Shown here: piece by piece, positions 5,014 through 22,501 of the stretch
Layout of the letters: each line of letters begins with the position of its first letter
How positions within the stretch are numbered: position 1 is the first letter of the stretch
Assembly: GCF_044324875.1 (NCBI RefSeq)
Contig: NZ_CP172185.1
Strand: one strand, 5' to 3'
Source of the DNA: Escherichia coli
GTDB lineage: Bacteria; Pseudomonadota; Gammaproteobacteria; Enterobacterales; Enterobacteriaceae
Length of the DNA stretch: 64,000 nt
Translations under genes and position numbers: made by a program
Notes under the pieces: generated by a model
Told to the model about the DNA's origin: nothing
The model's database searches: none
The model's input: the letters and a program-made list of their open reading frames with translations, nothing else

Positions 5014-6240
5014 ATGGATAAACTACTTGAGCGATTTTTGAACTACGTGTCTCTGGATACCCAATCAAAGGCAGGGGTGAGACAGGTTCCCAGCACGGAA
5101 GGCCAATGGAAGTTATTGCATCTGCTGAAAGAGCAGCTCGAAGAGATGGGGCTTATCAATGTGACCTTAAGTGAGAAGGGCACTTTGATGGCGACGTTAC
5201 CGGCTAACGTCCCTGGCGATATCCCGGCGATTGGCTTTATTTCTCATGTGGATACCTCACCGGATTGCAGCGGCAAAAATGTGAATCCGCAAATTGTTGA
5301 AAACTATCGCGGTGGCGATATTGCGCTGGGTATCGGCGATGAAGTTTTATCACCGGTTATGTTCCCGGTGCTGCATCAGCTACTGAGTCAGACGCTGATT
5401 ACCACCGATGGTAAAACCTTGTTAGGAGCCGATGACAAAGCAGGTATTGCAGAAATCATGACCGCGCTGGCGGTATTGCAACAGAAAAACATTCCGCATG
5501 GTGATATTCGCGTCGCCTTTACCCCGGATGAAGAAGTGGGCAAAGGGGCGAAACATTTTGATGTTGACGCCTTCGATGCCCGCTGGGCTTACACCGTTGA
5601 TGGTGGTGGCGTAGGCGAACTGGAGTTTGAAAACTTCAACGCTGCGTCGGTCAATATCAAAATTGTAGGCAATAACGTTCACCCAGGCACAGCGAAAGGT
5701 GTAATGGTGAATGCGCTGTCGCTGGCGGCACGTATTCATGCGGAAGTTCCGGCGGATGAAAGCCCGGAAATGACAGAAGGCTATGAAGGTTTCTATCACC
5801 TGGCGAGCATGAAAGGCACCGTTGAACGGGCCGATATGCACTACATCATCCGTGATTTCGACCGTAAACAGTTTGAAGCGCGTAAACGTAAAATGATGGA
5901 GATCGCCAAAAAAGTGGGCAAAGGGTTACATCCTGATTGCTACATTGAATTGGTGATTGAAGACAGTTACTACAATATGCGCGAGAAAGTGGTTGAGCAT
6001 CCGCATATTCTCGATATCGCCCAGCAGGCGATGCGTGACTGCGATATTGAACCGGAACTGAAACCGATCCGCGGCGGTACCGACGGCGCGCAGTTGTCGT
6101 TTATGGGATTACCGTGCCCGAACCTGTTCACTGGCGGTTACAACTATCATGGTAAGCATGAGTTTGTGACTCTGGAAGGTATGGAAAAAGCGGTGCAGGT
6201 GATCGTCCGTATTGCCGAGTTAACGGCGCAACGGAAGTAA
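5014..6240 (+). CDS. pepT: peptidase T (tripeptide aminopeptidase)
   Basis: [19 protein letters not shown]... is the PepT N-terminus. A GAGGGTG Shine-Dalgarno precedes ATG 5014. The longest ORF begins 14 codons earlier. Confidence 0.95.
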
Positions 6241-7611: not shown

Positions 7612-7637
7612 CGGTGTAGTTAATGGTGTAGTTAATT
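7612..7637. repeat. attL core: CGGTGTAGTTAATGGTGTAGTTAATT
   Basis: Identical 26-mer at 18721-18746. It contains a tandem 12-mer GGTGTAGTTAAT x2. The imperfect repeat extends leftwards to 7580 (compare 18689). Confidence 0.85.
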
Positions 7638-7658
7638 GTGATGACCGGATTCAAAATT

Positions 7659-8888
7659 ATGAGCAGAGCACTTAACAAGCTGAGCGATACACAGCTAAGG
7701 AAAATCAACGGCACACCCGCCCAAAAAACAGCCTTTCTTAATGACGGTGGAAACTTGAGCGTCAGGCATTCAACCAGCGGCCTTTTAACCTGGTATTTCA
7801 CTTACAGGGCCGGAACGGGAAGGGGGGCATCACCGGAACGCATTAAGCTGGGAAATTATCCTGATCTGAGCCTGAAATCAGCCAGGGAAAAAGCCGCCCA
7901 GTGTCGCGCATGGCTGGCTGAGGGGAAAAATCCACGTCATGAGATGAATTACACCGTACAGGAAGCGTTAAAGCCTGTAACGGTTGGCGATGCGCTCACC
8001 TACTGGCTTGAGTCGTACGCAAAGGAAAACCGTGTGGATTATGACCCACTGAAAAAGCGGCTAAATAATCACGTAATACAGCACATTGGCCCTATGCCGC
8101 TGGATAAATGCGAGCTACGGCACTGGCTGGCCTGTTTTGATCGGGTGGCAAAGCAAGCCCCTGTTTCCGCCGGGTTCCTGCTACAGACATGCAAACAGGC
8201 GCTTAAGTTCTGCCGGAAGCGGCGCTATGCAATCAGCAACGTTCTTGATGATATGAGTGTGGCTGACGTTGGGAAAAAACCGGATATAGGCGAACGTGTC
8301 TTAAGTACCAAAGAACTGGGCGAATTATTGCAGGCACTGGACAAAAAAATATTTTCCCCTTACTACGTCGCACTAATCCGCCTCCTGATTGTTTTCGGAT
8401 GCCGGACAGTAGAACTGAGGTTATCGGAGATCGGCGAGTGGGATTTTACCGAAATGCTCTGGACCGTTCCGAAGGAGCACAGCAAAACGAAGGTAGCCAT
8501 ATTCCGGCCCATACCGGAAGCGATACTGCCGTTCGTCACGCAGCTGATGGAGCAGAACAGGCACACGGGCTTATTGCTGGGGGAAGTGAAACAGGAAACC
8601 AGCGTGTCGCAGTACGGCAGATTAGTGCACAGGAGGCTTAAACACCCTCACTGGTCACTGCATGACATCCGGCGCACCTTTACAACGATGCTGAACGATT
8701 TAGGCGTGGATCCTCACGTCGTGGAGCAGCTTACAGGCCACCAGATGCCAGGAATGCAGCGAGTTTATAATCATTCCCGTTATCTGGATGCGAAACGCAA
8801 TGCGCTGGATATGTGGACGGAGCGGTTAGGGATACTGGCGGGAGCACATGAAAACGTAACCACGCTACCAGTAACCAGAAGAAAATAA
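7659..8888 (+). CDS. int: P4-type tyrosine integrase (DUF4102 N-terminal arm-binding domain)
   Basis: The N-terminus MSRALNKLSDTQLRK...GNLSVRHSTSGLLTWYFTYR...LGNYPDLSLKSAREKA fits the DUF4102 pattern. The C-terminal catalytic region includes HDIRRTF and YNHSRY. The gene lies immediately inside attL. Confidence 0.9.
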   Translation: MSRALNKLSDTQLRKINGTPAQKTAFLNDGGNLSVRHSTSGLLTWYFTYRAGTGRGASPERIKLGNYPDLSLKSAREKAAQCRAWLAEGKNPRHEMNYTVQEALKPVTVGDALTYWLESYAKENRVDYDPLKKRLNNHVIQHIGPMPLDKCELRHWLACFDRVAKQAPVSAGFLLQTCKQALKFCRKRRYAISNVLDDMSVADVGKKPDIGERVLSTKELGELLQALDKKIFSPYYVALIRLLIVFGCRTVELRLSEIGEWDFTEMLWTVPKEHSKTKVAIFRPIPEAILPFVTQLMEQNRHTGLLLGEVKQETSVSQYGRLVHRRLKHPHWSLHDIRRTFTTMLNDLGVDPHVVEQLTGHQMPGMQRVYNHSRYLDAKRNALDMWTERLGILAGAHENVTTLPVTRRK

Positions 8889-8936
8889 TTTTTTTCGTGT
8901 TTTTTCAGTATGCGCATACTGGATAAGTGCACAGAT

Positions 8937-8970
8937 ACAACGTGAAACAATAAGCAACAACGTGAAACAA
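8937..8970. repeat. two direct copies of ACAACGTGAAACAA just 3' of int (candidate integrase arm-type sites)
   Basis: Copies at 8937-8950 and 8957-8970. The reverse complement TTGTTTCACGTTGT occurs at 7580-7593, and at 18689-18702 with one mismatch; each of those is 18 bp left of an att core. Confidence 0.5.
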
Positions 8971-9262
8971 CCACGAACAAGAGGTCAAAAAGTATACAGA
9001 TTTATAAGTTGCTGATTTTTAATGCTCAACTGGTTTTTTATACATTAGCGAATAACGCTTTAAATAGTGAGAAAAAAGTCATAAAACGAGATTTTATGCC
9101 TTTGCATAATACTGAATTAAAATGATTTTTATTAAAATCACCCCGTTTCTGTAAAATACCCGCCACCAACATTTGCCAACTCTGAATCACCCTGACACAA
9201 TCAGACACATCCCAACGCAATAGAACACGAAATAACTCTTTAAGAAACGAAAGGGGGCAATA

Positions 9263-9451
9263 GTGTTAAGCACTGATCGGTTTATACGTGAAAAAGAATG
9301 CGAAAAGCTAACAGGCCTTAGCCGCTCATGCCGCTACCGCCTGGAAAAGGCCGGACAATTCCCATCACGGCGTAAGCTGGGCGGTCGTTCCGTTGGCTGG
9401 TCTTTATCCGAAGTTCTGGCATGGAAGGAAAGCTGCGAGGCAGTTCACTAA
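9263..9451 (+). CDS. alpA: AlpA-family transcriptional regulator / excisionase-like HTH protein (GTG start)
   Basis: 62 aa. The segment FIREKECEKLTGLSRSCRYRLEKAGQFPSRRKLGGRSVGWSLSEVLAWK is the typical AlpA/Prophage_CP4-57 regulator pattern. An AAGGGGG Shine-Dalgarno lies upstream. Confidence 0.8.
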   Translation: MLSTDRFIREKECEKLTGLSRSCRYRLEKAGQFPSRRKLGGRSVGWSLSEVLAWKESCEAVH

Positions 9452-9716
9452 AAAGACTGGCGGCACACAGCCGCCACCCATCCACTAATACAGAGATTTA
9501 ACCATGAAGACTGGATATACGCCCGAACAGGGGCGGGGCTTCGTTCGGCCTGGTGAAACTGAAAAACAACAAAATCGCGGTTTTTCAGGCATAAAAAAAG
9601 CGGCCCCGATAAGGAGCCGCCTTTCTGAACAATTAACCTACAGCGCAAAAAATGAATCTGAGCAGTGGGATTATATCAACCGTGCAACGAAGCGCCACAA
9701 TTGCCGGATAACGGGC

Positions 9717-9744
9717 AAAGAAAAGGCCACCTGTCACGGTGGCC
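9717..9744 (-). terminator. intrinsic terminator downstream of the minus-strand RHH gene
   Basis: Stem GGCCACC / GGTGGCC. On the minus strand it is followed by TTTTCTTT. It lies 34 nt after the stop at 9778. Confidence 0.6.
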
Positions 9745-9777
9745 AATGTGATCAGTGTGGTGGCTTGCTGGTGGCTA

Positions 9778-9969
9778 TCAACCTTTGGGTTCTATACCGC
9801 GCCGCTTTAGTTCAGCGCGCCCCAACTCTTTAAGCCAGTTGGCTAGGCTTATGCCGTCGCTCTGCGCTTCTTTGTCGAATTGCTCTTTTAGCTCTGGAGA
9901 AATTCGCATTCTGAATTGTGGGGATTGCCCATCACCCTTAGGGCTTTTATCACGTTTGATTGTTGACAA
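9778..9969 (-). CDS. Arc/MetJ-type ribbon-helix-helix DNA-binding protein (TTG start on the ORF track)
   Basis: PQFRMRISPELKEQFDKEAQSDGISLANWLKELG fits the beta-strand plus two-helix RHH pattern. It is the only island gene on the minus strand, placed divergently to the early operon. Confidence 0.5.
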   Translation of the reverse strand: MSTIKRDKSPKGDGQSPQFRMRISPELKEQFDKEAQSDGISLANWLKELGRAELKRRGIEPKG

Positions 9970-10103
9970 GTGGTCACCTATTAAATTAGCCTTTCTATTG
10001 TTAGGTGGTCACCTTAACACGGGGACACTTAAAAAAGCAAAGCCCGAAGGCGCTAGGAACACCAACGGGCTTCTAACCACAAACCGTTATGAGAGGTAGT
10101 TTT

Positions 10104-10301
10104 ATGGCTGTAAGACAGCATACCCCACGACTAGCGCACACACAAACCGCCTTTGTGTGGCGTTTTCTGGCACTGAGTGCCGGAGAATCTCAAATCATCC
10201 ACGTAACCGCCTGGACGGAACGCGAAGCGCGTAGCCGTTGCCCGTCCGGTTGTGTTGCTGTATTCGCCGCCCGTATTCGTCAGGGGGTGTACCATGATTA
10301 A
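10104..10301 (+). CDS. Icd-like (host cell division inhibitor-like) small protein of P4-like elements
   Basis: The segment VTAWTEREARSRCPSGCVAVFAARI resembles the conserved core of Icd-like proteins annotated in P4-type islands, as I remember it. ATG 10104 follows GAGAGG. The longest ORF starts at 10089. Confidence 0.4.
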   Translation: MAVRQHTPRLAHTQTAFVWRFLALSAGESQIIHVTAWTEREARSRCPSGCVAVFAARIRQGVYHD

Positions 10302-10662
10302 CCTGTCACTTACCGATCTTAACCGCGTTCAGTTTCGTGAGAAATTTACCGGACAGCTACTCGTCAATGTGGAGAACGGGCGCATAGTGCGTAATTATCA
10401 CCTGCCGGATGGTGCAATTGCCGGAAGCGTTGAAGCATTGCTGGAACTGGCGGAACGTGCGCGACTGATTAAGCCGTCAACGAGCCATCACGATGATGAT
10501 CTGCATTTTACCGGATGTATGGTGAGTCACTACGAAAACGGCGTCGAGGTATCCTGCGAACGGCTGCGTGATGATTGCTGTTTCGGCACACTGCCGGAAT
10601 TTATCGAATTGCTGACCAGTTGCGGATATCAGGTTATTCAGGGGGTGCGCCATGTGCAATAA
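10291..10662 (+). CDS. hypothetical protein
   Basis: The ATG overlaps the upstream stop region (translational coupling). It is part of a tightly packed same-strand operon. No family was recognised. Confidence 0.5.
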   Translation, partial: TMINLSLTDLNRVQFREKFTGQLLVNVENGRIVRNYHLPDGAIAGSVEALLELAERARLIKPSTSHHDDDLHFTGCMVSHYENGVEVSCERLRDDCCFGTLPEFIELLTSCGYQVIQGVRHVQ

Positions 10663-11107
10663 CATCCGTCCGGACGCAGCAGGCGAAGCCATCATAACGC
10701 TAATGCACGCGCTGATTGATATTTCATGCACGGCAGCAACCGCAGAAAAACACATTACCAGAGAGCCGGAATATACAGGGGCAATAATCCCGCATTCGCT
10801 GGCCTACGCACAGCTAACCGCTGATATGGCGCTGAATGAGGCTAAAGCCATCCTGATTGCTGATTGTGAAAATGGGGGGGGGGTTATGCGTGATGATCGT
10901 TTTAATTCCCTGAAACAGGAATTTTCCGGCGTTCCTGATAATGCGGCTGATGCGCTTTCGTCAATATCTGAAATTATGCGGGTGGCTTTTTTCTTTCTTT
11001 GCACTGATGAGCACAGGGATACAGGGCTAAATATTCTTGATATCGCCGCTAATTATGCTGATTTCGTAACGGAAACTGTTTTAAGAAAAACGACGGACGG
11101 GGATTAA
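10652..11107 (+). CDS. hypothetical protein
   Basis: 151 aa. It overlaps the upstream gene by 11 nt. No family was recognised. Confidence 0.5.
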   Translation: MCNNIRPDAAGEAIITLMHALIDISCTAATAEKHITREPEYTGAIIPHSLAYAQLTADMALNEAKAILIADCENGGGVMRDDRFNSLKQEFSGVPDNAADALSSISEIMRVAFFFLCTDEHRDTGLNILDIAANYADFVTETVLRKTTDGD

Positions 11108-11108
11108 T

Positions 11109-11342
11109 ATGCGTGATATTTACCACGAAACAATAGACCGCGCATTTCTTGCACTTTCTCACAGTGAAAATATGTTGGAAATATTGCGCATATGTCTTGA
11201 AACGCTTGGAGATAATGAACGTGATAAACAGAAATCAATGATTGTCACGGCATTAATAACGCTTCTTGAGCCTGTAATAAATGAGTTGCAGGAAATAGAG
11301 ACATTACACGACCAGTATAAAGCGCCCCACACCGGAGAATAA
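11109..11342 (+). CDS. hypothetical protein (helical, acidic)
   Basis: 77 aa. It starts 1 nt after the preceding stop. No family was recognised. Confidence 0.45.
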   Translation: MRDIYHETIDRAFLALSHSENMLEILRICLETLGDNERDKQKSMIVTALITLLEPVINELQEIETLHDQYKAPHTGE

Positions 11343-11347
11343 AAAAC

Positions 11348-11635
11348 ATGAAAAATAAAAATTCTGGCGTTAATGCCAGCGGCCCCGCTCGTCCTGAAAT
11401 CCGTCCCGGCGATATTTTCCGTGATAACTACGGCGGCACGGTAATGATTAAGGGCGTGGAAGAACGGCGCGTAACCTACCGCCGTGATGGCTACGAATAT
11501 GACTGCGTTATGCCTGTTTATCAGTTCCGGCGTGATTTCACGCTGGTGGGCCATCGTAAAGCCGTTAATCAGAAACGTGCTGCAAGTTATATCCGCAAAA
11601 TCCGTGAAATGCTGGTCGCAGGGGGTAAGAAATGA
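11348..11635 (+). CDS. hypothetical protein, possibly DUF4222-like
   Basis: 95 aa. The pattern RPGDIFRDNYGGTVMIKGVEERRVTYRRDGYEYDCVMPVYQFRRDF resembles the small DUF4222 proteins of lambdoid phages; this is a low-certainty recollection. Its stop overlaps the rep start. Confidence 0.4.
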   Translation: MKNKNSGVNASGPARPEIRPGDIFRDNYGGTVMIKGVEERRVTYRRDGYEYDCVMPVYQFRRDFTLVGHRKAVNQKRAASYIRKIREMLVAGGKK

Positions 11636-13038
11636 AACTTGCACCGAACGTAAAACTGTTACCGAAAGATAAACACACTGAGGCGGTTATTTTTGCGGGT
11701 GATAATGCTCACTCCTTTGCAGAACATTACATGATTGCACAGGCCAAAAAAGCAGGCGATCCCATCCCTCCGGTTTACCTGGGCCGTTATCAGTTAAGCG
11801 AACTGGACAACTTACAGATTGTTGATGAAGGACGATACAGGGCAAAGGTCATACGCGCCGGAAACCTGGACGATATGCAGATGCTGACCATTGCCACAAA
11901 ACTGGCGATCGCCGGAGTCCAGGAGGCGCGCCTACTTTCTGAAAATTTCGAACTGCTGGAGGACTGGAGCGACCAGCTACCACGACTACGGGAAACATGG
12001 GAGAGAGGGGAAAGCCTGGTCATGAATGGCGGAAAGCGAAAAATCACACTTCCCATCTCATGGGGTTCTGAGGGATTCGATGCGCAGCAAAGCTACGTCA
12101 TTAAGGGGCTTATTCCGGCTGAGTCATTATGCAGCACCTACGGGGCCAGCGGTTCTTATAAATCGTTCCTCGCCATTTCCTGGTCGTGCCATGTTGCCAC
12201 AGGTATGGCATGGGGAGGCCGCAGGGTAAGTAAGGGTGCGGTTATCTATATCGCTGGCGAAGGCAGCATGGGCGTAAAACGCCGCGTTAAGGCGTGGGAG
12301 ATAACCCACGACAAGGTGGTTACAGATTTGTGCATCATTAACGCGCCTGTTTTCCCTGCATCGCCTGACTATGTGGAGCAGGTTATCAGGACTGCCGGAC
12401 TTGTTAAGAGCAGAACGGGCGAAAATGTGCGGCTGATTGTGATCGACACGCTGGCCCGTTGCTTTGGTGGGAATGATGAAAATGATTCCCGTGATATGGG
12501 CGCATTTATCCAGGGGTGTGACGCGATAAAGCAGGCCACAGGGGCCACGGTGCTGGTGGTTCACCATTCCGGCAAGGATGAAACAAAGGGGGCGCGTGGT
12601 TCCAGTGCATTCCGTGCCGCGCTTGATGCAGAGTACCGAATCAGCCGCGAAAATTCAGACGTTACAGCACTGGTCGCAGCATGTACGAAGATGAAGGACG
12701 CAGAGGAGCCAAAAGAGAGCGCATACGACCTTAAAAGCGTGGAGGTGTTCACCGATACAGATGGCGAAGAAATTGTGTCCATGGTGGTGATTGACGTTCC
12801 CCGCGCCCCTGCTGAACTGGAGCGCATCGAGGAGGCAGGCAACAAGACGGAAAACCATACCGCGCTATGGGGGTGCATCCGTTCACGCACACAGAACGGC
12901 GACAAGTGCACGATCCCGCTGTTACGTGATGACATGAAACGGCTTGGGTATGACGTGAAAAATATGCGGCGATGGTTAGCCAAACTGGAAAAAGACGCCG
13001 TGATTTACATTGATGGTGATGATGTAGGACCACTGTAA
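11632..13038 (+). CDS. RepA-like (AAA_25/RecA-fold) replication ATPase/helicase
   Basis: 468 aa with a Walker A-like GASGSYKS, Walker B LIVIDTLARC and VLVVHHSGKDETKGARGSSAF, typical of RepA/DnaB-like helicases. An iteron array follows immediately. Confidence 0.7.
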   Translation: MKLAPNVKLLPKDKHTEAVIFAGDNAHSFAEHYMIAQAKKAGDPIPPVYLGRYQLSELDNLQIVDEGRYRAKVIRAGNLDDMQMLTIATKLAIAGVQEARLLSENFELLEDWSDQLPRLRETWERGESLVMNGGKRKITLPISWGSEGFDAQQSYVIKGLIPAESLCSTYGASGSYKSFLAISWSCHVATGMAWGGRRVSKGAVIYIAGEGSMGVKRRVKAWEITHDKVVTDLCIINAPVFPASPDYVEQVIRTAGLVKSRTGENVRLIVIDTLARCFGGNDENDSRDMGAFIQGCDAIKQATGATVLVVHHSGKDETKGARGSSAFRAALDAEYRISRENSDVTALVAACTKMKDAEEPKESAYDLKSVEVFTDTDGEEIVSMVVIDVPRAPAELERIEEAGNKTENHTALWGCIRSRTQNGDKCTIPLLRDDMKRLGYDVKNMRRWLAKLEKDAVIYIDGDDVGPL

Positions 13039-13237
13039 AAAGTGAGTAGTAAAAGTGAGTAATGGTGAGGTTTTTACAAAATATTAACACAATTACTCAC
13101 TTTCTCACCTGTATACATGCTCAAAAGTGAGCAGTGAAAAAACACTTATGAAACATGCACATATAAAACACAAAAATCTCAAGTGAGACGAAGTGAGACG
13201 CTTTAAAAAGTGAGTAGTAAAAGTGAGAGATGGTGAG
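13037..13237. repeat. iteron-type replication origin candidate (AGTGAG repeats flanking an AT-rich core)
   Basis: A 33-nt repeat AAAAAGTGAGTAGTAAAAGTGAG(TA/AG)ATGGTGAG occurs at 13037-13069 and 13205-13237. An inverted CTCACTTTCTCACC lies at 13096-13109, AAGTGAGCAGTGA near 13125, and a tandem AAGTGAGACG x2 at 13181-13200. Confidence 0.65.
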
Positions 13238-13239
13238 CA

Positions 13240-13608
13240 ATGAATAAAAACCGAACAGCAGGACAAAATACCGAAGGTAAATTTATGAACACTGAAATTG
13301 AAACACTGAGCATATCAACTGCCCTTCCTGGCTGGTGGGCTAAGTTCAAAGACGACGACGGCACGGAATGGTATAGCCCAATTGCTGCATGGGCGCTTTG
13401 TGATATCCACCATTTCGGCACCGGAGATACTTACCGCGAAATCTTACCCGTGCTGACCAGTGAGCTGGGCATGAGTCCGCATAGTCCTGATGAGGGAATG
13501 TGCGAGTGCCTTTATCTGCCGGATAAGAAGTTTGTTCACTGTGGTGAATCGATGGTATTTGCCTGGTATCCGGTTAACGACAGCAGCAATAGCGGTACTC
13601 TGGAGTAA
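13240..13608 (+). CDS. hypothetical protein
   Basis: 122 aa (alternative start at 13285). Same-strand operon context. No family was recognised. Confidence 0.45.
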   Translation: MNKNRTAGQNTEGKFMNTEIETLSISTALPGWWAKFKDDDGTEWYSPIAAWALCDIHHFGTGDTYREILPVLTSELGMSPHSPDEGMCECLYLPDKKFVHCGESMVFAWYPVNDSSNSGTLE

Positions 13609-13611
13609 ATC

Positions 13612-13854
13612 ATGAAGGTAAACCACAAAAAGACAGATCACCGCGCCATTGACCTTACAGAGCACTGGCTGAGGGTGGCGATAAAAATCATCGACCGCAA
13701 CACGGGGGAAGGATACGCGAAAGCACATCCCGAACTGATAAGTGCATTCATGACCACAGCGGCGGCAAACTTTGCCACGCTGACAGAGCGGGATATTGCC
13801 GAAGCAGAACAGGTAACAACCATCAACGTTAAAACCAGTGAGGTGGAATCATGA
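13612..13854 (+). CDS. hypothetical protein
   Basis: 80 aa. It overlaps the ssb start by 4 nt (ATGA). Confidence 0.45.
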   Translation: MKVNHKKTDHRAIDLTEHWLRVAIKIIDRNTGEGYAKAHPELISAFMTTAAANFATLTERDIAEAEQVTTINVKTSEVES

Positions 13855-14261
13855 CAGCACAGATAGCGGCTTACGGGCGGCTGGTGGACGACCCGCAGGT
13901 AAAACAGACCAGTAAGGGTACACCGATGACGCTGGCGCGTATGGCGGTATCTTTACCATGCGGCCAGGCACAGGACGGACAGGCGACGTTATGGTTATCG
14001 GTCATCGCATTTGGCAAACAGGCCGACTTTCTGGCTAAACATCAAAAAGGCGACGTTGCCAGCGTATCCGGCACGATGCAGGTCAGCCAGTGGACCGGAC
14101 AGAACGGGGAAACGCGGCAGGGTTATCAGGTTATTGCAGACAGCGTAATCAGTGCCCGTGCGGCACGTCCTGGCGGGAACAGACGCAAAACCACAGGCAC
14201 ACAGGGTAATCAGCCACCAGCGGGAGGCGATGACCCTTACGGTGATGATATTCCGTTCTGA
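13851..14261 (+). CDS. ssb: single-stranded DNA-binding protein
   Basis: 136 aa with an OB-fold N-terminal region (AYGRLVDDPQ...TLWLSVIAFGKQA), a Gly/Pro/Gln-rich linker and the canonical acidic tip DDIPF. Confidence 0.85.
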   Translation: MTAQIAAYGRLVDDPQVKQTSKGTPMTLARMAVSLPCGQAQDGQATLWLSVIAFGKQADFLAKHQKGDVASVSGTMQVSQWTGQNGETRQGYQVIADSVISARAARPGGNRRKTTGTQGNQPPAGGDDPYGDDIPF

Positions 14262-14271
14262 GGGGGTGACG

Positions 14272-14544
14272 ATGGTACATGACCGCATAGCGGAGGAACT
14301 CGAGGCAAAAGGATTTTACCGGAGGGCGGCGGCGCGATGGGGTGAAGTTATGAGGCTGGTGAGCACTGACAAGGAGCGCGAACAGGTGGCAATGCGACGG
14401 CTGGAATGTTCCCTGAAGGCACAGAGGCCACCGGAGCCGCCGGATGATTTAGGCGCTCTGAAAAGGTCAGTTAATCGCACTGAAAAACAAATGGGGATAG
14501 CTGGTATTGGCAAAGCAATATGGCGCAACTACCCGCAGAAGTGA
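14272..14544 (+). CDS. PerC-family transcriptional activator-like protein
   Basis: MVHDRIAEELEAKGFYRRAAARWGEVM... matches the PerC/Pch signature (LE.KG.WRRAA.RW..V) as I remember it. The start is taken at ATG 14272 after GGGGGTGA. Confidence 0.55.
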   Translation: MVHDRIAEELEAKGFYRRAAARWGEVMRLVSTDKEREQVAMRRLECSLKAQRPPEPPDDLGALKRSVNRTEKQMGIAGIGKAIWRNYPQK

Positions 14545-14550
14545 GCACAC

Positions 14551-14573
14551 AGCCGGAGCAATCCGGCTTTTTT
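14551..14573 (+). terminator. intrinsic terminator ending the early/replication operon
   Basis: AGCCGGA-GCAA-TCCGGCT followed by TTTTT. Confidence 0.8.
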
Positions 14574-14584
14574 ACGCCTAAAAA

Positions 14585-14621
14585 AAGCCCGATAAGGTCA
14601 AAGGGGGCTTATCGGGCTTTT
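14585..14621 (+). terminator. second hairpin terminator
   Basis: 12-bp stem AAGCCCGATAAG / CTTATCGGGCTT followed by TT. Confidence 0.6.
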
Positions 14622-14784
14622 GTAGAGGAGGTTTTTTATGGTGCACTGGCACACATGATCGGGATAATCATTTCATAATTTGCAACATAACTCAATATTG
14701 TTGCGCAAAATGCAATCATGATTATAATCAGGACTGGATGAACATCCAGTTATGATTTTTTAAGTCAAAGAGGAATTTCTGACT

Positions 14785-14991
14785 ATGGCAGAAGAGAAAA
14801 AAGGCGGGGTGACGGTCTACATAAGCCCCGACATCGTGGAGGCGCTCAAGGAACGCCACCAGCAGAATGTAAAAGCAGGCATTGCGGCAGGACTTGATCC
14901 GCTGGCGATGGTTGAGCCGTCAACAGGCTGGCAGGTGCGTACCTATTTACGTGCGGCGCTGGGTATCAATCAGGTTCACGGAGGTGAATAA
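14785..14991 (+). CDS. hypothetical small protein, first gene of the capsid operon
   Basis: 68 aa. AGAGGA Shine-Dalgarno. Its TAA overlaps the capsid ATG (TAATG). Confidence 0.5.
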   Translation: MAEEKKGGVTVYISPDIVEALKERHQQNVKAGIAAGLDPLAMVEPSTGWQVRTYLRAALGINQVHGGE

Positions 14992-16046
14992 TGACAGGCA
15001 AAGCAAAGGCACTTACAACTAACCAGCTTTTCGCGTACCTGAATCGCGGGGATATTTCGGAATATAAATTTAGTCCGCTGTTTACCACGCTGTTTTTCCC
15101 GAACGTGGCGACCTTCAACACCCAAAACATCATGCTGGACACCCTGGACATTGAAGAGGTTACGATGTCAGCGTTCTGTTCTCCTATGGTGGGTAGTCAG
15201 GTCCAGCGCGATAAAGGGTACGAAACCAGCACGATTAAACCAGGCTACATGAAGCCAAAGCACGAAATCGATCCAACAAAGACCATCATGCGCATGGATG
15301 GAGAAGATCCGGCACAGCTTAACGATCCAACTTACCGCCGTATGCGCCTGATTACTGGCAACATGCGCCGCCAGATAAACGCCATTAAGGCGCGCGTGGA
15401 ATGGCTGGCGGTGAATGCGGTAACGACCGGAAAAAACATCATTGAGGGCGAAGGCATAGAACGCTATGAAATCGACTGGAAAATACCGGAAAACTGCATC
15501 ATACAGCAGGCCAGTGGTAAAAAATGGTCCCAGCAGGATAAAGACATGCACGACCCAATCTATGACATCGAGCTTTATGCTGATCAGGCAGGTTGCCCCG
15601 CCAACGTCATGATTATGGGCGGTGAGGTATGGCGCACATTACGCAGCTTTAAAAAATTCCGTGAACTGTACGATCTTTCCCGTGGATCAGAATCCGCCGC
15701 CGAGCTGGCCTGTAAAAACCTGGGCGAAGTGGTGAGCTTTAAAGGCTATCTTGGTGATCTGGCCCTTATCGTCTATTCCGGCAAATACACTGACAGCGAC
15801 GGGACCGAAAAATATTTCCTTGAGCCTGATTTGCTGGTCCTGGGTAACACCAACAATAAAGGGCTGGTGGCATATGGTGCGATTATGGATCAGGAAGCGG
15901 TAAGAACGGGCGCAACGCAAAACATGTACTACCCGAAAAACTGGATTGAGGACGGCGATCCGGCGATTGAGTACGTGCAGACGCACAGCGCACCGCAGCC
16001 TGTACCGGCAGATATTCGCAAATTTGTTACCGTCAAAATTGCTTAA
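14991..16046 (+). CDS. major capsid protein, lambda gpE family
   Basis: 351 aa. It aligns by eye along its length with lambda gpE: FSPLFTTLFFPN vs FDPLFLRLFFRE, KPGYMKPKHEIDP vs TPGYVKPKHEVNP, YPKNWIEDGDPA..SAPQP vs YPKNWVTTGDPA..SAPLM, and C-terminal FVTVKIA vs FVSVQLA. Confidence 0.9.
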   Translation: MTGKAKALTTNQLFAYLNRGDISEYKFSPLFTTLFFPNVATFNTQNIMLDTLDIEEVTMSAFCSPMVGSQVQRDKGYETSTIKPGYMKPKHEIDPTKTIMRMDGEDPAQLNDPTYRRMRLITGNMRRQINAIKARVEWLAVNAVTTGKNIIEGEGIERYEIDWKIPENCIIQQASGKKWSQQDKDMHDPIYDIELYADQAGCPANVMIMGGEVWRTLRSFKKFRELYDLSRGSESAAELACKNLGEVVSFKGYLGDLALIVYSGKYTDSDGTEKYFLEPDLLVLGNTNNKGLVAYGAIMDQEAVRTGATQNMYYPKNWIEDGDPAIEYVQTHSAPQPVPADIRKFVTVKIA

Positions 16047-16057
16047 CGGGGGATTCT

Positions 16058-16393
16058 ATGGACGCTCCATACATTGAGTTATTTTCAGGCAGCCAACAGG
16101 TATCCACGACGCTGGTACATTTTGCCGCTGATGCTGGCGTTATTCAGGAATTTACCCCGCTGATGCTGGCAGACAATGGCGAGTTTAAGCCGTGGGATGG
16201 TAAGGAATCTGGCAAGGCTGTTTATCTGACCTCGTACCCTGTGGACACGTCAAAGCAGAAATCAGCACAGTGTTACAAGACGGGGATATTCAATATTGCC
16301 GCCGTTAACTGGCCTGACAGCGTCGACACCGATGCGAAAAAATGCGCCGCCTTTGCGGGTTCCGGCGTATCCGTTCAGCCGCTGGCCCGATAA
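16058..16393 (+). CDS. head decoration protein, lambda gpD family
   Basis: 111 aa (gpD is about 110). TPLMLADNGEFKPWDG vs lambda TPLMLDTSSRKLVAWDG; YKTGIFN..VNWP...KKCAAFAGSGVSV vs YKSGTFR..VLWP...KKRTAFAGTAISI. Confidence 0.85.
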   Translation: MDAPYIELFSGSQQVSTTLVHFAADAGVIQEFTPLMLADNGEFKPWDGKESGKAVYLTSYPVDTSKQKSAQCYKTGIFNIAAVNWPDSVDTDAKKCAAFAGSGVSVQPLAR

Positions 16394-16467
16394 GCAGGGG
16401 GAACGATGGCACAAACCAGGGCGATGACGGCGACATCTATCGCATACTGAAAACCATCTGAGACAAG

Positions 16468-16490
16468 GCCGGAGAAATCCGGCTTTTTTT
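16468..16490 (+). terminator. intrinsic terminator after the capsid operon
   Basis: GCCGGA-GAAA-TCCGGC followed by TTTTTTT. It is the same hairpin family as the terminator at 14551. Confidence 0.8.
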
Positions 16491-16710
16491 GCGGGTCCTT
16501 TCCGGCATGTGGACCCGTTACGGGGCGTCGACCTCGCACGTTTTCGCTATTTATGAAAATTTTCCGGGAAAAAGCATGTCAGTTCTTCTTGTTATTAACA
16601 TATTGTTTTTAAAGAAATAACTATCAAGAAAGAAACGACATCATAATGATGAAAAATCTGTTTTTTTTGGCATTTCATGTCGTAACTGATTTTTGATAAG
16701 GAATTGCTGA
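16491..16710 (+). other. lambda-type cos region (cosQ-like 16493-16505, cosN cohesive-end 12-mer 16523-16534, cosB-like R/IHF region to about 16700)
   Basis: GCGGGTCCTTTCCGG...GTTACG|GGGCGTCGACCT|CGCACGTTTTCGCTATTTATGAAAATTTTCCGG compares with lambda ACGGGTCCTTTCCGG...GTTACG|GGGCGGCGACCT|CGCGGGTTTTCGCTATTTATGAAAATTTTCCGG (lambda recalled from memory). R2-like AAGAAAGAAACGACAT. It lies directly upstream of the Nu1 homologue, as in lambda. Confidence 0.8.
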
Positions 16711-17295
16711 ATGAATGTTAATAAAAAGAGGCTTGCCGAAATTTTTAACGTGGACCCGCGGACGATTGAACGCTGGCAGTCACAGGGGCTTCCTTGCGTC
16801 TCCAAAGGCAGTAAGGGCATTGAATCTGTATTTGATACTGCCATGGCAATTCAGTGGTATGCGCGGAGGGAAACTGATATCGAAAACGAAAAGCTCCGCA
16901 AAGAACTGGACGATTTGCGTGCGGCAGCGGAGTCAGATTTACAACCCGGCACCATTGACTATGAACGCTATCGGCTCACAAAAGCGCAGGCAGATGCGCA
17001 GGAACTTAAAAACGAGCGCGATCGCGGTGACGTGATTGATACAGAGTTTTGCATGTACGCGCTTTCAAAACTGGCGAGTCAGATTTCATCAATCATGGAC
17101 AGCCTCCCGCTTACTATGCAAAGGAGCTTCCCACAGATGACCCCCGCCATGCTGGATGGCCTGAAAAAAGAAGTTGTCAGAGCCTGTAACGCATGCACAA
17201 AACTTGATGAAAACATCCCGCGAATGCTGTCCGATTATCTGATGGAAACTACCGGAAATGTGCCTGATAAGTTTCAGCCGGATAAAGACAAGTAA
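16711..17295 (+). CDS. terminase small subunit, lambda Nu1 family
   Basis: [28 protein letters not shown]... vs lambda MEVNKKQLADIFGASIRTIQNWQEQGMP. A long conserved block is shared: IENEKLR...[26 protein letters not shown]. 194 aa vs 181 in lambda. Confidence 0.9.
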
Positions 17296-17313
17296 CGTAG
17301 TGCACAATGACCG

Positions 17314-17336
17314 AAGCCAGTTTACTGACTGGCTTT
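17314..17336 (+). terminator. hairpin after the Nu1-like gene
   Basis: AAGCCAGT-TTACTG-ACTGGCTT followed by T. The U-tract is short. Confidence 0.4.
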
Positions 17337-17635
17337 CAGCGTTGCGCTGGTGGGCGTTATGCGTCAGTGATAAACGTCTCCAATATTACTGATATTCGAC
17401 ATCCCCACCTCTCCACACCAGCTCGAATATCATTTTTCTCATTAAAAACAGGACATTAAAAACTGGTCAGATGTCCCATAAAAAGCCAAATGGGACAGGT
17501 CAAAAGCTTTTTTTGCAGTAATTTTCAATAGGTTACTTGATGTGGTGGTGTCCCATGAAAATTCAAAAATCAGCCGTTTTCCGCGATGCTCCCGCCCCGT
17601 GGCAGGGCACCCCACAAGGAGGACCCGCCATCACT

Positions 17636-17935
17636 ATGGAGGACATGACCATGACCGAGACCGAAGCGCTCGGGATAATCCGCAGTATTACCGGAATCAG
17701 CCAGCAGGCTGGCGAACAGGAGGCCACGCAGCCGGACAGCGTGATCGCCGAAAATTACGTGCGTGTTGTTGCTGATGTAATGCGCCGTGATGGTATTGAG
17801 CTTAACGGCGTGGATATGCGCGACATACGAATCAGAGTACTAGAGTTGCTGGCATACCGTCGACGCGTGGCGATGTATCAGGAGAGCGCGAAAAACACTT
17901 ATCAGTGGAAGAAGCCGGAGCGGTTACGGCGGTAA
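17636..17935 (+). CDS. hypothetical protein (accessory position between packaging gene and attR)
   Basis: About 99 aa from ATG 17636, with AAGGAGG 13 nt upstream. The longest ORF starts at 17537. No family was recognised. Confidence 0.4.
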   Translation: MEDMTMTETEALGIIRSITGISQQAGEQEATQPDSVIAENYVRVVADVMRRDGIELNGVDMRDIRIRVLELLAYRRRVAMYQESAKNTYQWKKPERLRR

Positions 17936-17937
17936 CT

Positions 17938-18510
17938 GGTTGATATTTTCGAAATTCGCCAGCGGCGAACATCGGGGAAACCAGCCTAACCAGTTGATTC
18001 TTTCGGAAACAGCCATTGGCGGAATCCGGCGCGGTAACTTGCTGATATTCCCGATAACGCAAAATTGCGCTGGCTACATCCCTCACATCTGAGGACTGAT
18101 AATGCGACATTGCGCTGGCTGGCAAAGTGCAAAATTGCACGATGGCCTAACCCATTGATTATTTCGAAAACCTGCAATGCAGGAAATCGGGGAAGTAAGC
18201 CTAAGCTATTGATTCTTTCGGAAACCTCAATTTGAGGAAGTCGGCGCGGTAACTCGCTGAACTTAAAGCAAACCTCAAAATTGAGCTGGCTGAATAATCA
18301 TTATGATTACGCAGATGATTAAGGAATGACCGAAGGCGGAAATTCGCCTGTGGTTGATGGGGGAGTTGCAGATCTGCAACTCGACCATGAAACTACGGAA
18401 ACTACCCGTAGTTTGGGTAGTAAGAGTAACACCCAGATTTTGGGACTTACTCGTGATACCCAAATTTGGAGTATCGGTGGCAACCATAACGACTTTCGTT
18501 ACGGTTGATG
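17938..18510. repeat. non-coding array of about 15 short palindromes/hairpins embedded in a duplicated scaffold
   Basis: Two homologous units (about 17941-18076 and 18155-18292) share flanks such as TTGATTCTTTCGGAAAC and CGGCGCGGTAACT. They carry different palindromes at the same three positions. Further palindromes continue to a 12-bp-stem hairpin at 18481-18507. Confidence 0.7.
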
Positions 18511-18720
18511 CTTTTACCCCATTGGGGGAAAGGTATTACGATAATCATAACACCTACCGAACAGGTAAAGCCCACCAGCCTGATTGACATTTAACCGGAA
18601 AAAAAGCCAGGTAGCCCCGTTATGTGGATCCCCATATCGACAGCAACGCCCCCTTAAAATTACCCGCCTTTATATTTCTTGTGCCTATTTGTTCCACGTT
18701 GTTTCATACAGTGCGCCGAA

Positions 18721-18746
18721 CGGTGTAGTTAATGGTGTAGTTAATT
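18721..18746. repeat. attR core: CGGTGTAGTTAATGGTGTAGTTAATT
   Basis: Identical to 7612-7637. Confidence 0.85.
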
Positions 18747-18826
18747 TGCGATTTTTGGCACTTTTGTTTGTGTATATTTTTAATTAAATCAATACATTAA
18801 CTAATATCGGTGATAAAAGGGCATAT

Positions 18827-20287
18827 TTATTCATCTTTCGGCGCAGAATGCTGGCGACCAAAAATCACCTCCATCCGCGCACCGCCCAGCATGCTCTCTC
18901 CGGCGACGATTTTACCCTCATATTGCTCGGTGATTTCGCGGGCTACCGCCAGCCCTACACCTTGCCCAGGGCGTAAAGTATCAACCCGTTGACCACGGTC
19001 GAAAATGACCTCTCGCTTGCTTAATGGAATACCGGGGCCATCATCCTCGACCACAATATAGAGATGCTCGTCGGTTTGCCTTGCAGATATTTCGACAAAC
19101 TCGAGGCAATATTTACAGGCATTATCCAGCACGTTGCCCATCACCTCGACAAAATCGTTCTGCTCACCGACAAAGCTGATCTCTGGCGAAATATCGAGAG
19201 AGATATTGACCCCTTTGCGTTGATACACTTTGTTCAGCGCCGAGGTGAGATTGTCCAGCAGTGGGGCGACCGGATGTAGCTCGCGGCTAAGCAATGTCCC
19301 GCCGCGCATACTGGCACGATGCAGGTAGTAGCCAATTTGCTGTGAAATGCGACTGATTTGCTCCAGCATTACCGGCTCAGCATCACTGACGCTCATCTTC
19401 TCACTACGCAGAGAACGCAGCGTACTTTGCAGCACCGCCAGTGGCGTTTTCAGACTATGGGTCAGGTCGGTGAGCGTTGTACGATATTTGTCGTAACGTT
19501 CGCGTTCACTTTTTAACAATCGGTTCAGGTTTCGTACCAGACTGGTCAGTTCTCGCGTTGTGGCTGGATTGAGCAATTCGCGGTTATGTTCTTCCAGTTC
19601 GCGGACTTCTTTTGCCAGGGCTTCGATGGGGCGTAAACTCCACCTGGCGGCGACCCACAGCAGCGGGATCACTAACAGCAGATTGGCTGAGAGCACATAG
19701 ATAAACCAGCTCCAGACCATATAGGAACTTTTTAGCTCCACCGGAATGGTATCCACCACCACAATGGTCAACTTTGGCATCCGCGATGTTGCCGGGTAGA
19801 CGTTTACCGCCACCGAGTGGGTCATCTCCGCGTCGTCATCATCTTCCCGCACTTCCTGCAACTGTTGCTGTATCGAATGATCTCCACTCAGCAAGAGGCT
19901 GGTATCGTTAACATCCGCTTCAATTTCATGAAAACCATTCGATTTCAGCCAGTCAGGCTGGATCATCTTCATCAGCCAGGGCACGTCACGTTGCGCCCAT
20001 AAAAGCTGCCCGTTCTCATCATAAATTAGCGTCATAGTGGGGCTTTGCTTGTCGATATTTTCGGGTAACTCGACATGCAACTTATTGTTTTCCCACTTCG
20101 CAAGGGTATAGAACAGATTGCTCTCGCCACGTAACAGCCGAAACGTAGTTTTATCGAAACTGACGCTATAACCGATCAGCGCGACCATTCCGTAGGCAAG
20201 CGAAAGCACCAGTACAACCGCTGCCGTTGCCAATAGAAAACGTACCCGCAGCGAGAGCGGGAAAAAAAGACGCAGTAATTTTTTCAT
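18827..20287 (-). CDS. phoQ: sensor histidine kinase PhoQ
   Basis: 486 aa, recognisable as the PhoQ sequence. H-box [10 protein letters not shown] and a C-terminal ATPase domain. Confidence 0.95.
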
Positions 20288-20958
20288 CAGCGCAATTCGA
20301 ACAGATAGCCCTGGCCGCGAACGGTGGTAATCACTTCTTGCGGATATTGTGCCTGAATTTTTTTGCGCAGACGTCCCATCAGTACATCAATGGTATGGCT
20401 TTCCCGCAGCTCCGCATCCGGATAGAGTTGTAGCATTAACGAATCTTTGCTGACCACTTTGCCATTATTGCGTATCAACGTTTCCATAATGGTGTATTCG
20501 AACGCGGTCAGTTTAATCACTTCGTCATTAATAGATAATTCACGGCGGGAGAGATCAACCTGAAACGGGGGTAGCGAAATGACCTGTGAGGCCAGACCGC
20601 TATTACGCCGCATTAATGCCTGCATTCGCGCCATCACCTCTTCAATATGAAACGGTTTAGTCACGTAATCATCAGCACCGGCACTTAATACTTCGACTTT
20701 GTCCTGCCAGCTTTCACGGGCGGTTAATACCAGAATCGGCAGTGAAACATCATTGCTACGCCAGCGGCGAATCAGTGACAGACCGTCCTCGTCAGGCAAA
20801 CCGAGATCGACAATCGCAATATCCGGTAAATGTTCATTGAGATAATAATCGGCTTCTTTGGCATCTTCTGCGTCATCGACCTGATGACCAGCATCCTGAA
20901 TCTGAACTTTAAGATGGTGACGTAACAACGCATTGTCTTCAACAACCAGTACGCGCAT
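20287..20958 (-). CDS. phoP: response regulator PhoP
   Basis: 223 aa OmpR-family regulator, [40 protein letters not shown]. Its stop overlaps the phoQ start. Confidence 0.95.
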
Positions 20959-21019
20959 TTTTTATTTCTCCCTGTCTTAATTATTAAAATAGTGTAACGC
21001 GATTATGTGGTTATGGGGG

Positions 21020-21036
21020 TAAACATTAAATAAACC
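21020..21036 (-). promoter_or_regulatory. PhoP box of the autoregulated phoPQ promoter
   Basis: The minus strand reads GGTTTATTTAATGTTTA, i.e. the direct repeat (G/T)GTTTA-N5-(G/T)GTTTA, about 60 nt upstream of the phoP ATG. Confidence 0.75.
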
Positions 21037-21127
21037 AGCGGGGAGGGGAGGTAAAGTGAAAAAATAAAAAGTGGATAATCTTAATAAGCAGGCCGGACAG
21101 CATCGCCATCCGGCACTGATTTGAGGC

Positions 21128-22501
<1,374 letters not shown>

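Follow-up and report, generated by a model that had tools for sequence, protein, structure and literature searches.

Candidate operator mimics for Roi-family proteins of helper phages in a satellite island of Escherichia coli

Roi and Rha are common proteins of lambdoid and Shiga toxin (Stx) phages, and the only phenotype of theirs known to us is that they block lytic growth when integration host factor (IHF) is mutated. The Roi protein of phage HK022, reportedly the allele that was studied experimentally, is said to bind a site in its own gene with a closely linked IHF site, the binding being stabilised by IHF, and the rha genes of phi80 and P22 reportedly behave like roi. Among phage satellites, the PLL promoter of P4 has upstream cox-boxes that are bound by the autoregulatory Cox protein of the helper phage P2 (PMC3936717). 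Little is known of how Gram-negative phage satellites recognise their helpers and manipulate them, and the helper signal that induces AlpA has not been identified (PMC6092414, PMC11773190). Here we analysed a non-coding array at positions 17938–18510 of a 64,000-nt window (the whole stretch of DNA under study) of an Escherichia coli chromosome, contig NZ_CP172185.1. The array lies in a satellite island of 11.1 kb (7612–18746). Judging from its sequence, we consider it fairly probable that the array provides operator mimics of several specificities, assisted by IHF, for the Roi-family proteins of helper phages and serves as a decoy or as a sensor.

The array consists of six copies of one module type, all in a single orientation (Table 1). 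A module of about 48 nt carries the IHF consensus WATCAANNNNTTR on the minus strand, then 10 nt and a palindrome whose centre lies 16–17 nt past the end of the consensus. The step from module to module is 54 or 48 nt, and the IHF sites are spaced 54, 48 and 54 nt apart. Four perfect consensus sites, at 17933, 17987, 18148 and 18202, fall within 282 nt on one strand, and the whole window holds 13 such sites versus 3.8 expected; the IHF-like site of module C1 is a WATCAR variant and that of C2 has decayed. The initial annotation, whose quoted sequences and coordinates were exact, had recognised two homologous units with three palindrome slots each. The two units (17933–18045 and 18148–18260) are indeed 74% identical without gaps, but they are really made of copies of the one module, the IHF consensus having gone unnoticed. 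The dyad in the second slot of the first unit is the 9-mer GCCATTGGC rather than AGCCATTGGC, and the third slot belongs to a three-copy family that ends in CTGGCT.

Relatives were collected as 80 metagenomic loci, fetched via the 99-aa open reading frame (ORF) upstream of the array, and three RefSeq islands; counts are given for 84 related islands. In these 90 kb of related DNA, the IHF consensus is oriented as in the modules 147 times and oppositely 21 times, and its distance to the dyad centre is fixed. The complete arrangement of a 9–15-nt palindrome, a 10-nt spacer and WATCAANNNNTTR is found in A1, B1, A2 and B2 and in 41 of the 69 unique modules of the relatives. The related arrays are mosaics of 0–5 modules in many combinations, ranging in length from 0 to 400 nt with the same attachment (att) repeat, and the module content varies among islands with nearly identical genes. 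Most commonly, an array has just one C-type module and after it a conserved tail, and a C-type module directly follows the ORF in most related islands. The C2 dyad CTCAAAATTGAG recurs at the same place in other arrays, and GTGCAAAAATGCAC is found elsewhere as a full module with an IHF site.

The region is exceptionally rich in symmetry. It holds 28 perfect dyads (stem at least 5, loop at most 7) versus 4.4 ± 2.5 in mononucleotide shuffles, none of 500 shuffles reaching 28, and no other 573-nt stretch of the 64 kb attains this number. The earlier proposal that symmetry is kept while the sequence is replaced holds up: one slot is occupied by at least 14 different palindromes across the related islands, and dyad symmetry is under selection. 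Among 24 non-redundant modules, 91.7% of the cells are complementary, versus 69.6% after shuffling (0 of 500 as high) and 34–55% with a slid partner, and both sides have changed at five of the six palindrome pairs (at one position, for example, T-A 8, C-G 7 and G-C 7). The claim does not extend to everything that had been listed. From 18363 onward, the dyads are part of another, near-invariant element in which no replacement is seen, and CCAAATTTGG and AGGCG-N6-CGCCT are each singly at chance level.

Compensatory changes could also maintain the stems of a multi-hairpin non-coding RNA, a role that had been suggested for the array, or hairpins of single-stranded DNA, and the folding z-scores of −3.6 and −2.7 on the two strands might seem to agree. 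We regard this as extremely unlikely. The symmetry extends into the centre of the palindromes, including positions 1 and 2 counted from a single-base centre; these could not pair in a hairpin whose loop has at least three bases. Moreover, only one G-U-type, one-sided cell stands against 28 double changes, the two strands fold about equally well, the stems measure only 4–7 bp, and homologous sites lie inside protein-coding genes beside an IHF site. A search of Rfam over positions 8000–22000 (14 kb) gave no match at E ≤ 1.

By homology, the array modules are copies of a composite site that various lambdoid phages have within their roi/rha genes. For module B2, 48 nt align at 94% identity (E = 6e-11) within the roi/ant genes of HK620, H-19B, HK75, many Stx phages and Kapi1, in which this stretch encodes RLPQIEVSERINNLG. 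Module B1 matches the phiP27 L14 antirepressor gene (89% over 36 nt, E = 8e-3); its dyad and spacer are those of phage class 3 (the classes are described below), and all four N positions of its IHF site differ. The match of A2 lies inside the Stx2a_WGPS6 gp39 antirepressor gene (96% over 27 nt), with a dyad and spacer identical to class 4 and a core dyad CTGCATTGCAG that is shared with HK022 roi. The best phage match of A1, 81% over 43 nt, is inside the Stx2_EH2201 gene for a 'DNA-binding protein' (EH2201_130; pRha domain; E = 0.3), where the module aligns to class 5, GCGCCAATGGCGAA. In other islands, CCCCCATTGGGGG modules match VT2-Sakai roi.

The best phage matches of A1, B1, A2 and B2 fall on the same codons of homologous pRha-domain genes and in the same relative orientation throughout. 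The matched stretch of 27–48 nt lies just downstream of the recognition helix of proteins whose N-terminal part is a Phage_pRha domain, some of them also having a KilAC domain. The homology between array and phage breaks off 5–7 nt outside the composite site, though the flanking coding DNA is far better conserved among phages. No other part of a roi gene was found in the 84 arrays or in the window, and searches with Pfam, PHROGs and tblastn found no Rha/Roi-like (pRha) protein encoded in the window. The non-coding status assigned to the region is borne out: we rejected a gene or pseudogene because only 15–16 codons are Roi-like, module lengths differ by non-multiples of three, and the ORFs are short and overlapping. 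A remnant of integration into roi was likewise dismissed, as no att repeat adjoins the modules and the matched roi genes in E. coli genomes are intact.

On the phage side, 233 roi-like genes from IMG/VR were compared. Their pRha domain is nearly invariant (about 95% conserved) except for one hypervariable cassette, which comprises the recognition-helix region and an in-frame palindrome about 10 codons further on. The palindrome is followed by 10 nt and a perfect IHF consensus that doubles as codons for E-K/R-I-N-N-L. The genes fall into seven classes, each with a distinct recognition-helix variant and its own distinct palindrome: the helix KRHDNVKRTIETL goes with CCTCAAATTGAGG, SRHDKVKQSIERL with CCCCCAATGGTGG or CCCCAATGGGG, SQH(S/K)DVKRSIERL with (G)CGCCAATGGC(G), SRPDNVKISIERL with CCTGCATTGCAGG, and SRPDSVKRTIETL with TTTCCAC-N5-GTGGAAA. 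One and the same cassette turns up in genes whose N- and C-terminal parts differ, between which it is exchanged. At the homologous place, HK022 roi has CCTGCATTGCAGC, 10 nt and AATCAATGATTTA. The class-1 palindrome occurs a single time in the HK620 genome, inside roi.

The satellite copies have diverged from the phage sites in a particular way. Against the nearest phage allele, array modules show mismatches at 67% of the free (N) positions in the IHF site (56 of 84) but at only 7% of the consensus positions (13 of 189). The palindromes are kept, and the class-2 site, imperfect in its coding version, is a perfect palindrome in the arrays. The IHF consensus and the palindrome are thus under purifying selection. 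Because the divergence sits at the free and not at the consensus positions, it indicates selection on protein binding; the pattern fits selection for the binding of IHF and a dimeric protein, rather than for coding, RNA complementarity or recency of copying.

This pattern bears on two other explanations. The array RNA could be the 3' end of the capsid-terS operon transcript, antisense to about 45 nt of several roi mRNA types, which it would silence or sponge. Every module is antisense to roi relative to island transcription, the complementarity amounts to 27–48 nt at 89–96%, and no convincing terminator was found between ORF and array, terminator-like sites being at chance level. We nevertheless judge antisense action clearly unlikely, for complementarity would select the opposite of divergence concentrated at the four free IHF positions with the consensus and the palindrome kept. 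The copied piece is also the most allele-specific part of roi, not the near-invariant coding DNA next to it; the C modules lack a target, and no Rfam family matches.

Neutral debris, that is, functionless roi fragments from recombination with helper phages or tandemly duplicated pieces of a pseudogene, is a very improbable explanation. The modules do clearly derive from coding DNA, the arrays are mosaic and variable (0–5 modules), and exchange may have been recent in the case of one array module that hardly differs from a phage allele. Yet every capture has the same boundaries and leaves out the better-conserved flanks, the orientation is uniform (147 versus 21), mismatches spare the IHF consensus, palindromes are perfect or improved, and none of the 84 arrays was found to hold any other part of roi.

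We therefore return to operator mimicry. Among the roles considered in the initial annotation, operators or decoys that dimeric DNA-binding proteins from the helper would occupy are specifically supported by the homology of the modules to the palindrome-plus-IHF site of roi/rha, and the island lacks such a protein. The window is predicted to carry sites for four Roi specificities, with A1 class 5-like, B1 class 3, A2 class 4 (HK022-like) and B2 class 1; in addition, the palindrome at 18517 is class-6-like, and two sites of the C type have no assigned partner. Since the island encodes no pRha protein, lambdoid phages in lytic growth must supply the partners in trans. The different palindromes would correspond to different recognition-helix variants of Roi. 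A lambdoid helper entering lytic growth would express Roi from its nin region, and we infer that Roi dimers together with host IHF load onto the satellite array. The satellite thereby probably captures or senses a regulator of the helper phage. The most likely consequence would be titration by a decoy, amplified through satellite replication, which would disturb the autoregulation of Roi and hence the timing of the helper. The main sub-alternative, in analogy to the cox-boxes of P4 and the Cox protein of P2, is that bound Roi and IHF would act as a signal of helper presence or as a roadblock at the attR end. We favour the decoy because the position of such sites is irrelevant, replication amplifies them, the palindromes are optimised and the specificities are many. 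As a broader and more tentative idea, which we find somewhat doubtful, satellites may keep an evolving 'library' of operator mimics, taken from the self-regulatory sites in the roi/rha genes of many helpers, perfected and shuffled between islands, with which, aided by host IHF, they would sequester or read out a regulator of the helper.

The palindromes might instead be operators of the island's own dimeric regulators (AlpA, the Arc-like and PerC-like proteins or the 99-aa ORF product), the likeness to roi reflecting only shared ancestry of a DNA module. The island does encode several small DNA-binding proteins, the 99-aa ORF has its stop codon within the first IHF site, and in nearly every island the last ORF is followed by C modules, which have no phage match. 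Even so, this explanation is unlikely: an island has four to six different palindromes with no matching diversity of regulators, module content varies while the island genes stay nearly the same, the dyad and spacer of A2, B1 and B2 are identical to specific phage alleles, and a pRha-domain protein was not found in the island.

Several points weigh against operator mimicry for Roi. The C-type modules, which are the commonest and apparently ancestral, have no counterpart in 50,697 phage records, and single BLAST E-values are weak for A1 (0.3) and A2 (0.1). The association of helix and palindrome could be mere linkage, both lying within 60 nt. Occupancy of the modules by Roi and IHF is a prediction from sequence. 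What the satellite gains is guesswork, as the normal role of Roi in phage growth is not known. No sigma-70-like promoter was detected in or beside the array; positions 16400–19000 contain one, inside the ORF, versus 3.7 expected, and weak or activator-dependent promoters would escape this search. Finally, no single module is essential, because their number varies from 0 to 5 between islands.

A few observations concern what else the arrays contain. D-type modules and the three-hairpin tail had no real match in the phage records. C2 has a 14-nt match inside a 'regulatory protein' gene of an Stx phage. Two related loci carry a further piece, AAACTACGAAATTTTCGCAGTTTAATTA (L001, 14310–14400; L004, 5070–5150), with weak matches (E 0.2–0.8) to Hafnia and Salmonella phage genes of the KilAC antirepressor or DNA-binding kind; the arrays may also sample other gene families. 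Ahead of each C module (18027–18047 and 18242–18262), the 3' end of the 99-aa ORF, CGGCGGTAAC (17915–17945), recurs as CGGCGCGGTAAC, which gives the impression that A-B module pairs entered between short direct repeats. The TAA within the IHF site of A1 is the stop codon of this ORF.

Table 1. Features of the array and of its surroundings in the island
Feature	Position	Strand	Description
Lambda-like cos	16523-16575	+	cosN GGGCGTCGACCT, then flank CGCACGTTTTCGCTATTTATGAAAATTTTCCGG; 188 nt upstream of Nu1-like terS, as in lambda
Last island ORF, 99 aa	17636-17935	+	Function not known; phrog_1561 (PHROG 1561); no Pfam match
Module A1	17933-17976	-	IHF site TATCAACCAGTTA 17933-17945; palindrome TTCGCCAGCGGCGAA 17955-17969
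Module B1	17982-18030	-	IHF site AATCAACTGGTTA 17987-17999; palindrome GCCATTGGC 18012-18020
Module C1	18031-18075	-	IHF-like site TATCAGCAAGTTA 18035-18047, fits WATCARNNNNTTR; palindrome CGCAAAATTGCG 18058-18069, then CTGGCT
Partial or degenerate modules	18076-18147		CCTCA-CATC-TGAGG 18081-18094; GCGACATTGCGC and CTGGCT 18104-18120; GTGCAAAATTGCAC 18127-18140; all without IHF consensus
Module A2	18143-18191	-	IHF site AATCAATGGGTTA 18148-18160; palindrome CCTGCAATGCAGG 18171-18183
Module B2	18197-18244	-	IHF site AATCAATAGCTTA 18202-18214; palindrome CCTCAATTTGAGG 18225-18237
Module C2	18246-18291	-	Decayed IHF site 18250-18262; palindrome CTCAAAATTGAG 18274-18285, then CTGGCT
Linker, second scaffold	18291-18357		CTGAAT, then AATCATTATGATT, then ACGCAGATGATT, then AGGCG-N6-CGCCT
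Three-hairpin element	18358-18478		20-nt palindrome GAGTTGCAGATCTGCAACTC; AAACTACGG/CCGTAGTTT; GGGTAGTAAG.../...CTTAC...TACCC
Tail hairpin	18481-18527		CAACCATAACGA/TCGTTACGGTTG, then TTGATGCTTTTA and CCCCATTGGGG (18517-18527); in one tail variant only
Right 26-nt repeat (attR side)	18721-18746	+	CGGTGTAGTTAATGGTGTAGTTAATT; direct-repeat match to left copy 7612-7637

Beyond C2, a second scaffold, CTGAAT...ACGCAGA (18291–18323), carries GGTCATAATGACC or GGTGGAAATCACC instead of AATCATTATGATT in other islands (L004 about 5195–5230; L005 about 5475–5510); a phage counterpart was not found in the 50,697 records. The element at 18358–18478 is separate from the module array. Its roughly 120 nt are near-identical across islands, even where the neighbouring ORF differs by 25%, and fold with z = −6.0 on the plus strand and −7.4 on the minus strand. 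The relatives show two wobble-compatible changes (plus strand) and one disruptive change, and neither Rfam nor the phage records gave a match. Motifs AACTAC/GTAGTT, like those of the att repeat, cluster at 18391–18421, and the element may be a small RNA or a platform for integrase arm binding. In the tail, CCCCATTGGGG is the phage class-6 palindrome, here without an IHF consensus and with a shorter spacer.

The neighbourhood of this element bears on a purely architectural function, in which phased IHF bends at 54-nt spacing would serve the integrase complex at att, or genome compaction or packaging, the palindromes being incidental. Spacings of 54, 48 and 54 nt do separate the four to five IHF sites, and the array lies 0.2–0.8 kb from attR, beside the element with integrase-arm-like GTAGTT motifs. 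We hold an IHF-only function to be very unlikely all the same, given that compensatory change and fixed geometry show the palindromes to be selected too. The array also lies farther from the core than a usual attP arm would, islands with the same att repeat have arrays of anything from 0 to 400 nt, and cos lies elsewhere in the island.

The island adjoins phoQ/phoP in the window and lies between copies of a 26-nt direct repeat that consists of two tandem GGTGTAGTTAAT units and is also seen at the right ends of the related loci L001 and L005. The same repeat flanks the island at a second chromosomal locus, cspD/clpS, and RefSeq genomes carry the island family beside phoQ or between cspD and clpS. 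The island genes include a P4-type integrase, an AAA_25 helicase, SSB and a PerC-like protein, as well as an AlpA-like and an Arc-like protein; the structural genes encode a lambda-E-like capsid protein, a gpD-like decoration protein and a Nu1-like small terminase. The array occupies the gap between the last ORF and attR. The share of about 7 percent of the island that had been ascribed to it applies to all non-coding DNA up to attR, whereas the array itself (573 nt) makes up 5% of the 11.1 kb. A related dyad, AATCATGATT, had been pointed out at 14714–14723, but no link to the array was found; this 10-mer abuts a perfect TATAAT upstream of the capsid gene and is probably part of its promoter.

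Pieces of the region are present in about 1,600–1,700 of 5,426 complete E. coli genomes, and the 99-aa ORF is common in E. coli and gut metagenomes; a pattern-based search of 185,579 species-representative genomes found no relatives of this ORF. The tandem-module pattern returned from these genomes only chance matches in AT-rich genomes and one false match in Enterobacteriaceae. We set aside a degraded known repeat, such as a miniature inverted-repeat transposable element or a repetitive extragenic palindrome (REP) or bacterial interspersed mosaic element (BIME): the sequences occupy a median of one place per genome, their contexts are this island family or roi genes only, and a REP consensus is missing. 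A cos/cosB packaging site was rejected, as cosN and its flank are at 16523, upstream of terS, and the array contains no cosN-like sequence. The replication origin of phage-inducible chromosomal islands (PICIs) consists of two sets of direct iterons around an AT-rich stretch, immediately 3' of the initiator gene (PMC6092414). Here the helicase gene ends at 13038, 4.9 kb away, and the array lacks an AT-rich core and holds palindromes, not iterons. The PerC-carrying PICI EcCIMP1, whose helper Kapi1 has a class-1 roi, is a different island at another site.

If operator mimicry is correct, a satellite element made of copies of Roi/Rha sites would link the recognition between satellite and helper with Roi/Rha function, and would offer the first physiological clue to the purpose of these proteins. 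It would predict a recognition code, in which five helix types are paired with five palindromes, and the array could be read as a sequence marker of the phages that an island has met. Operator mimicry would also be a new class of cis-acting weapon or sensor, working at the DNA level in the conflict between satellite and helper. This would be relevant to the induction of Stx phages in enterohaemorrhagic E. coli, where the same island adjoins phoQ.

The closest counterpart of the array is the HK022 roi site, which has the same order of palindrome, 10 nt and WATCAANNNNTTR; homology to phage sites in general amounts to 81–96% over 27–48 nt. Phage roi sites occur as one copy per genome within the coding sequence of the protein that reportedly binds them, whereas the satellite array has four to six copies of different specificities in the non-coding DNA of an element without the protein. 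We thus regard the array as a derived copy and not as a strict member of the roi intragenic operators, because it is non-coding and the window encodes no pRha protein. The cox-boxes of P4 resemble the array in being satellite sites for a helper DNA-binding protein that acts also on the helper's own DNA, which lets the satellite respond. They differ as 9-nt direct or inverted repeats for one protein at the promoter that they activate, whereas the array has no evident promoter, would need a host bending protein, has many predicted specificities and appears copied from inside a helper gene.

Clusters of sites that sequester a regulator are familiar from elsewhere. The datA locus of E. coli combines DnaA boxes with an essential IHF site, and the iteron 'inc' arrays of plasmids also titrate. 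Like them, the array would sequester a regulator, in common with datA with IHF as architectural cofactor; they titrate an own or host protein with a single specificity, while the polymorphic array would titrate the proteins of the parasitised element. In the parS centromere of P1, an IHF site is flanked by ParB boxes, so that an IHF bend stands beside specific protein boxes in fixed geometry as in the array. The array differs by its repeated modules with different palindromes and its roi homology, and no ParA or ParB is encoded in the island, which argues against the centromere-like role once considered for it. The RIB/RIP (BIME-1) elements of E. coli have an IHF site between REP palindromes and share with the array an IHF site beside palindromes in non-coding DNA, but the array has no REP consensus, is not dispersed and is confined to the island family and roi genes. 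Our literature searches brought up no earlier account of satellites with IHF arrays or with Roi/Rha sites. The kind is familiar, both from titration arrays and from sites on satellites that a helper protein binds; a polymorphic array of mimics copied from inside helper genes appears to be new.

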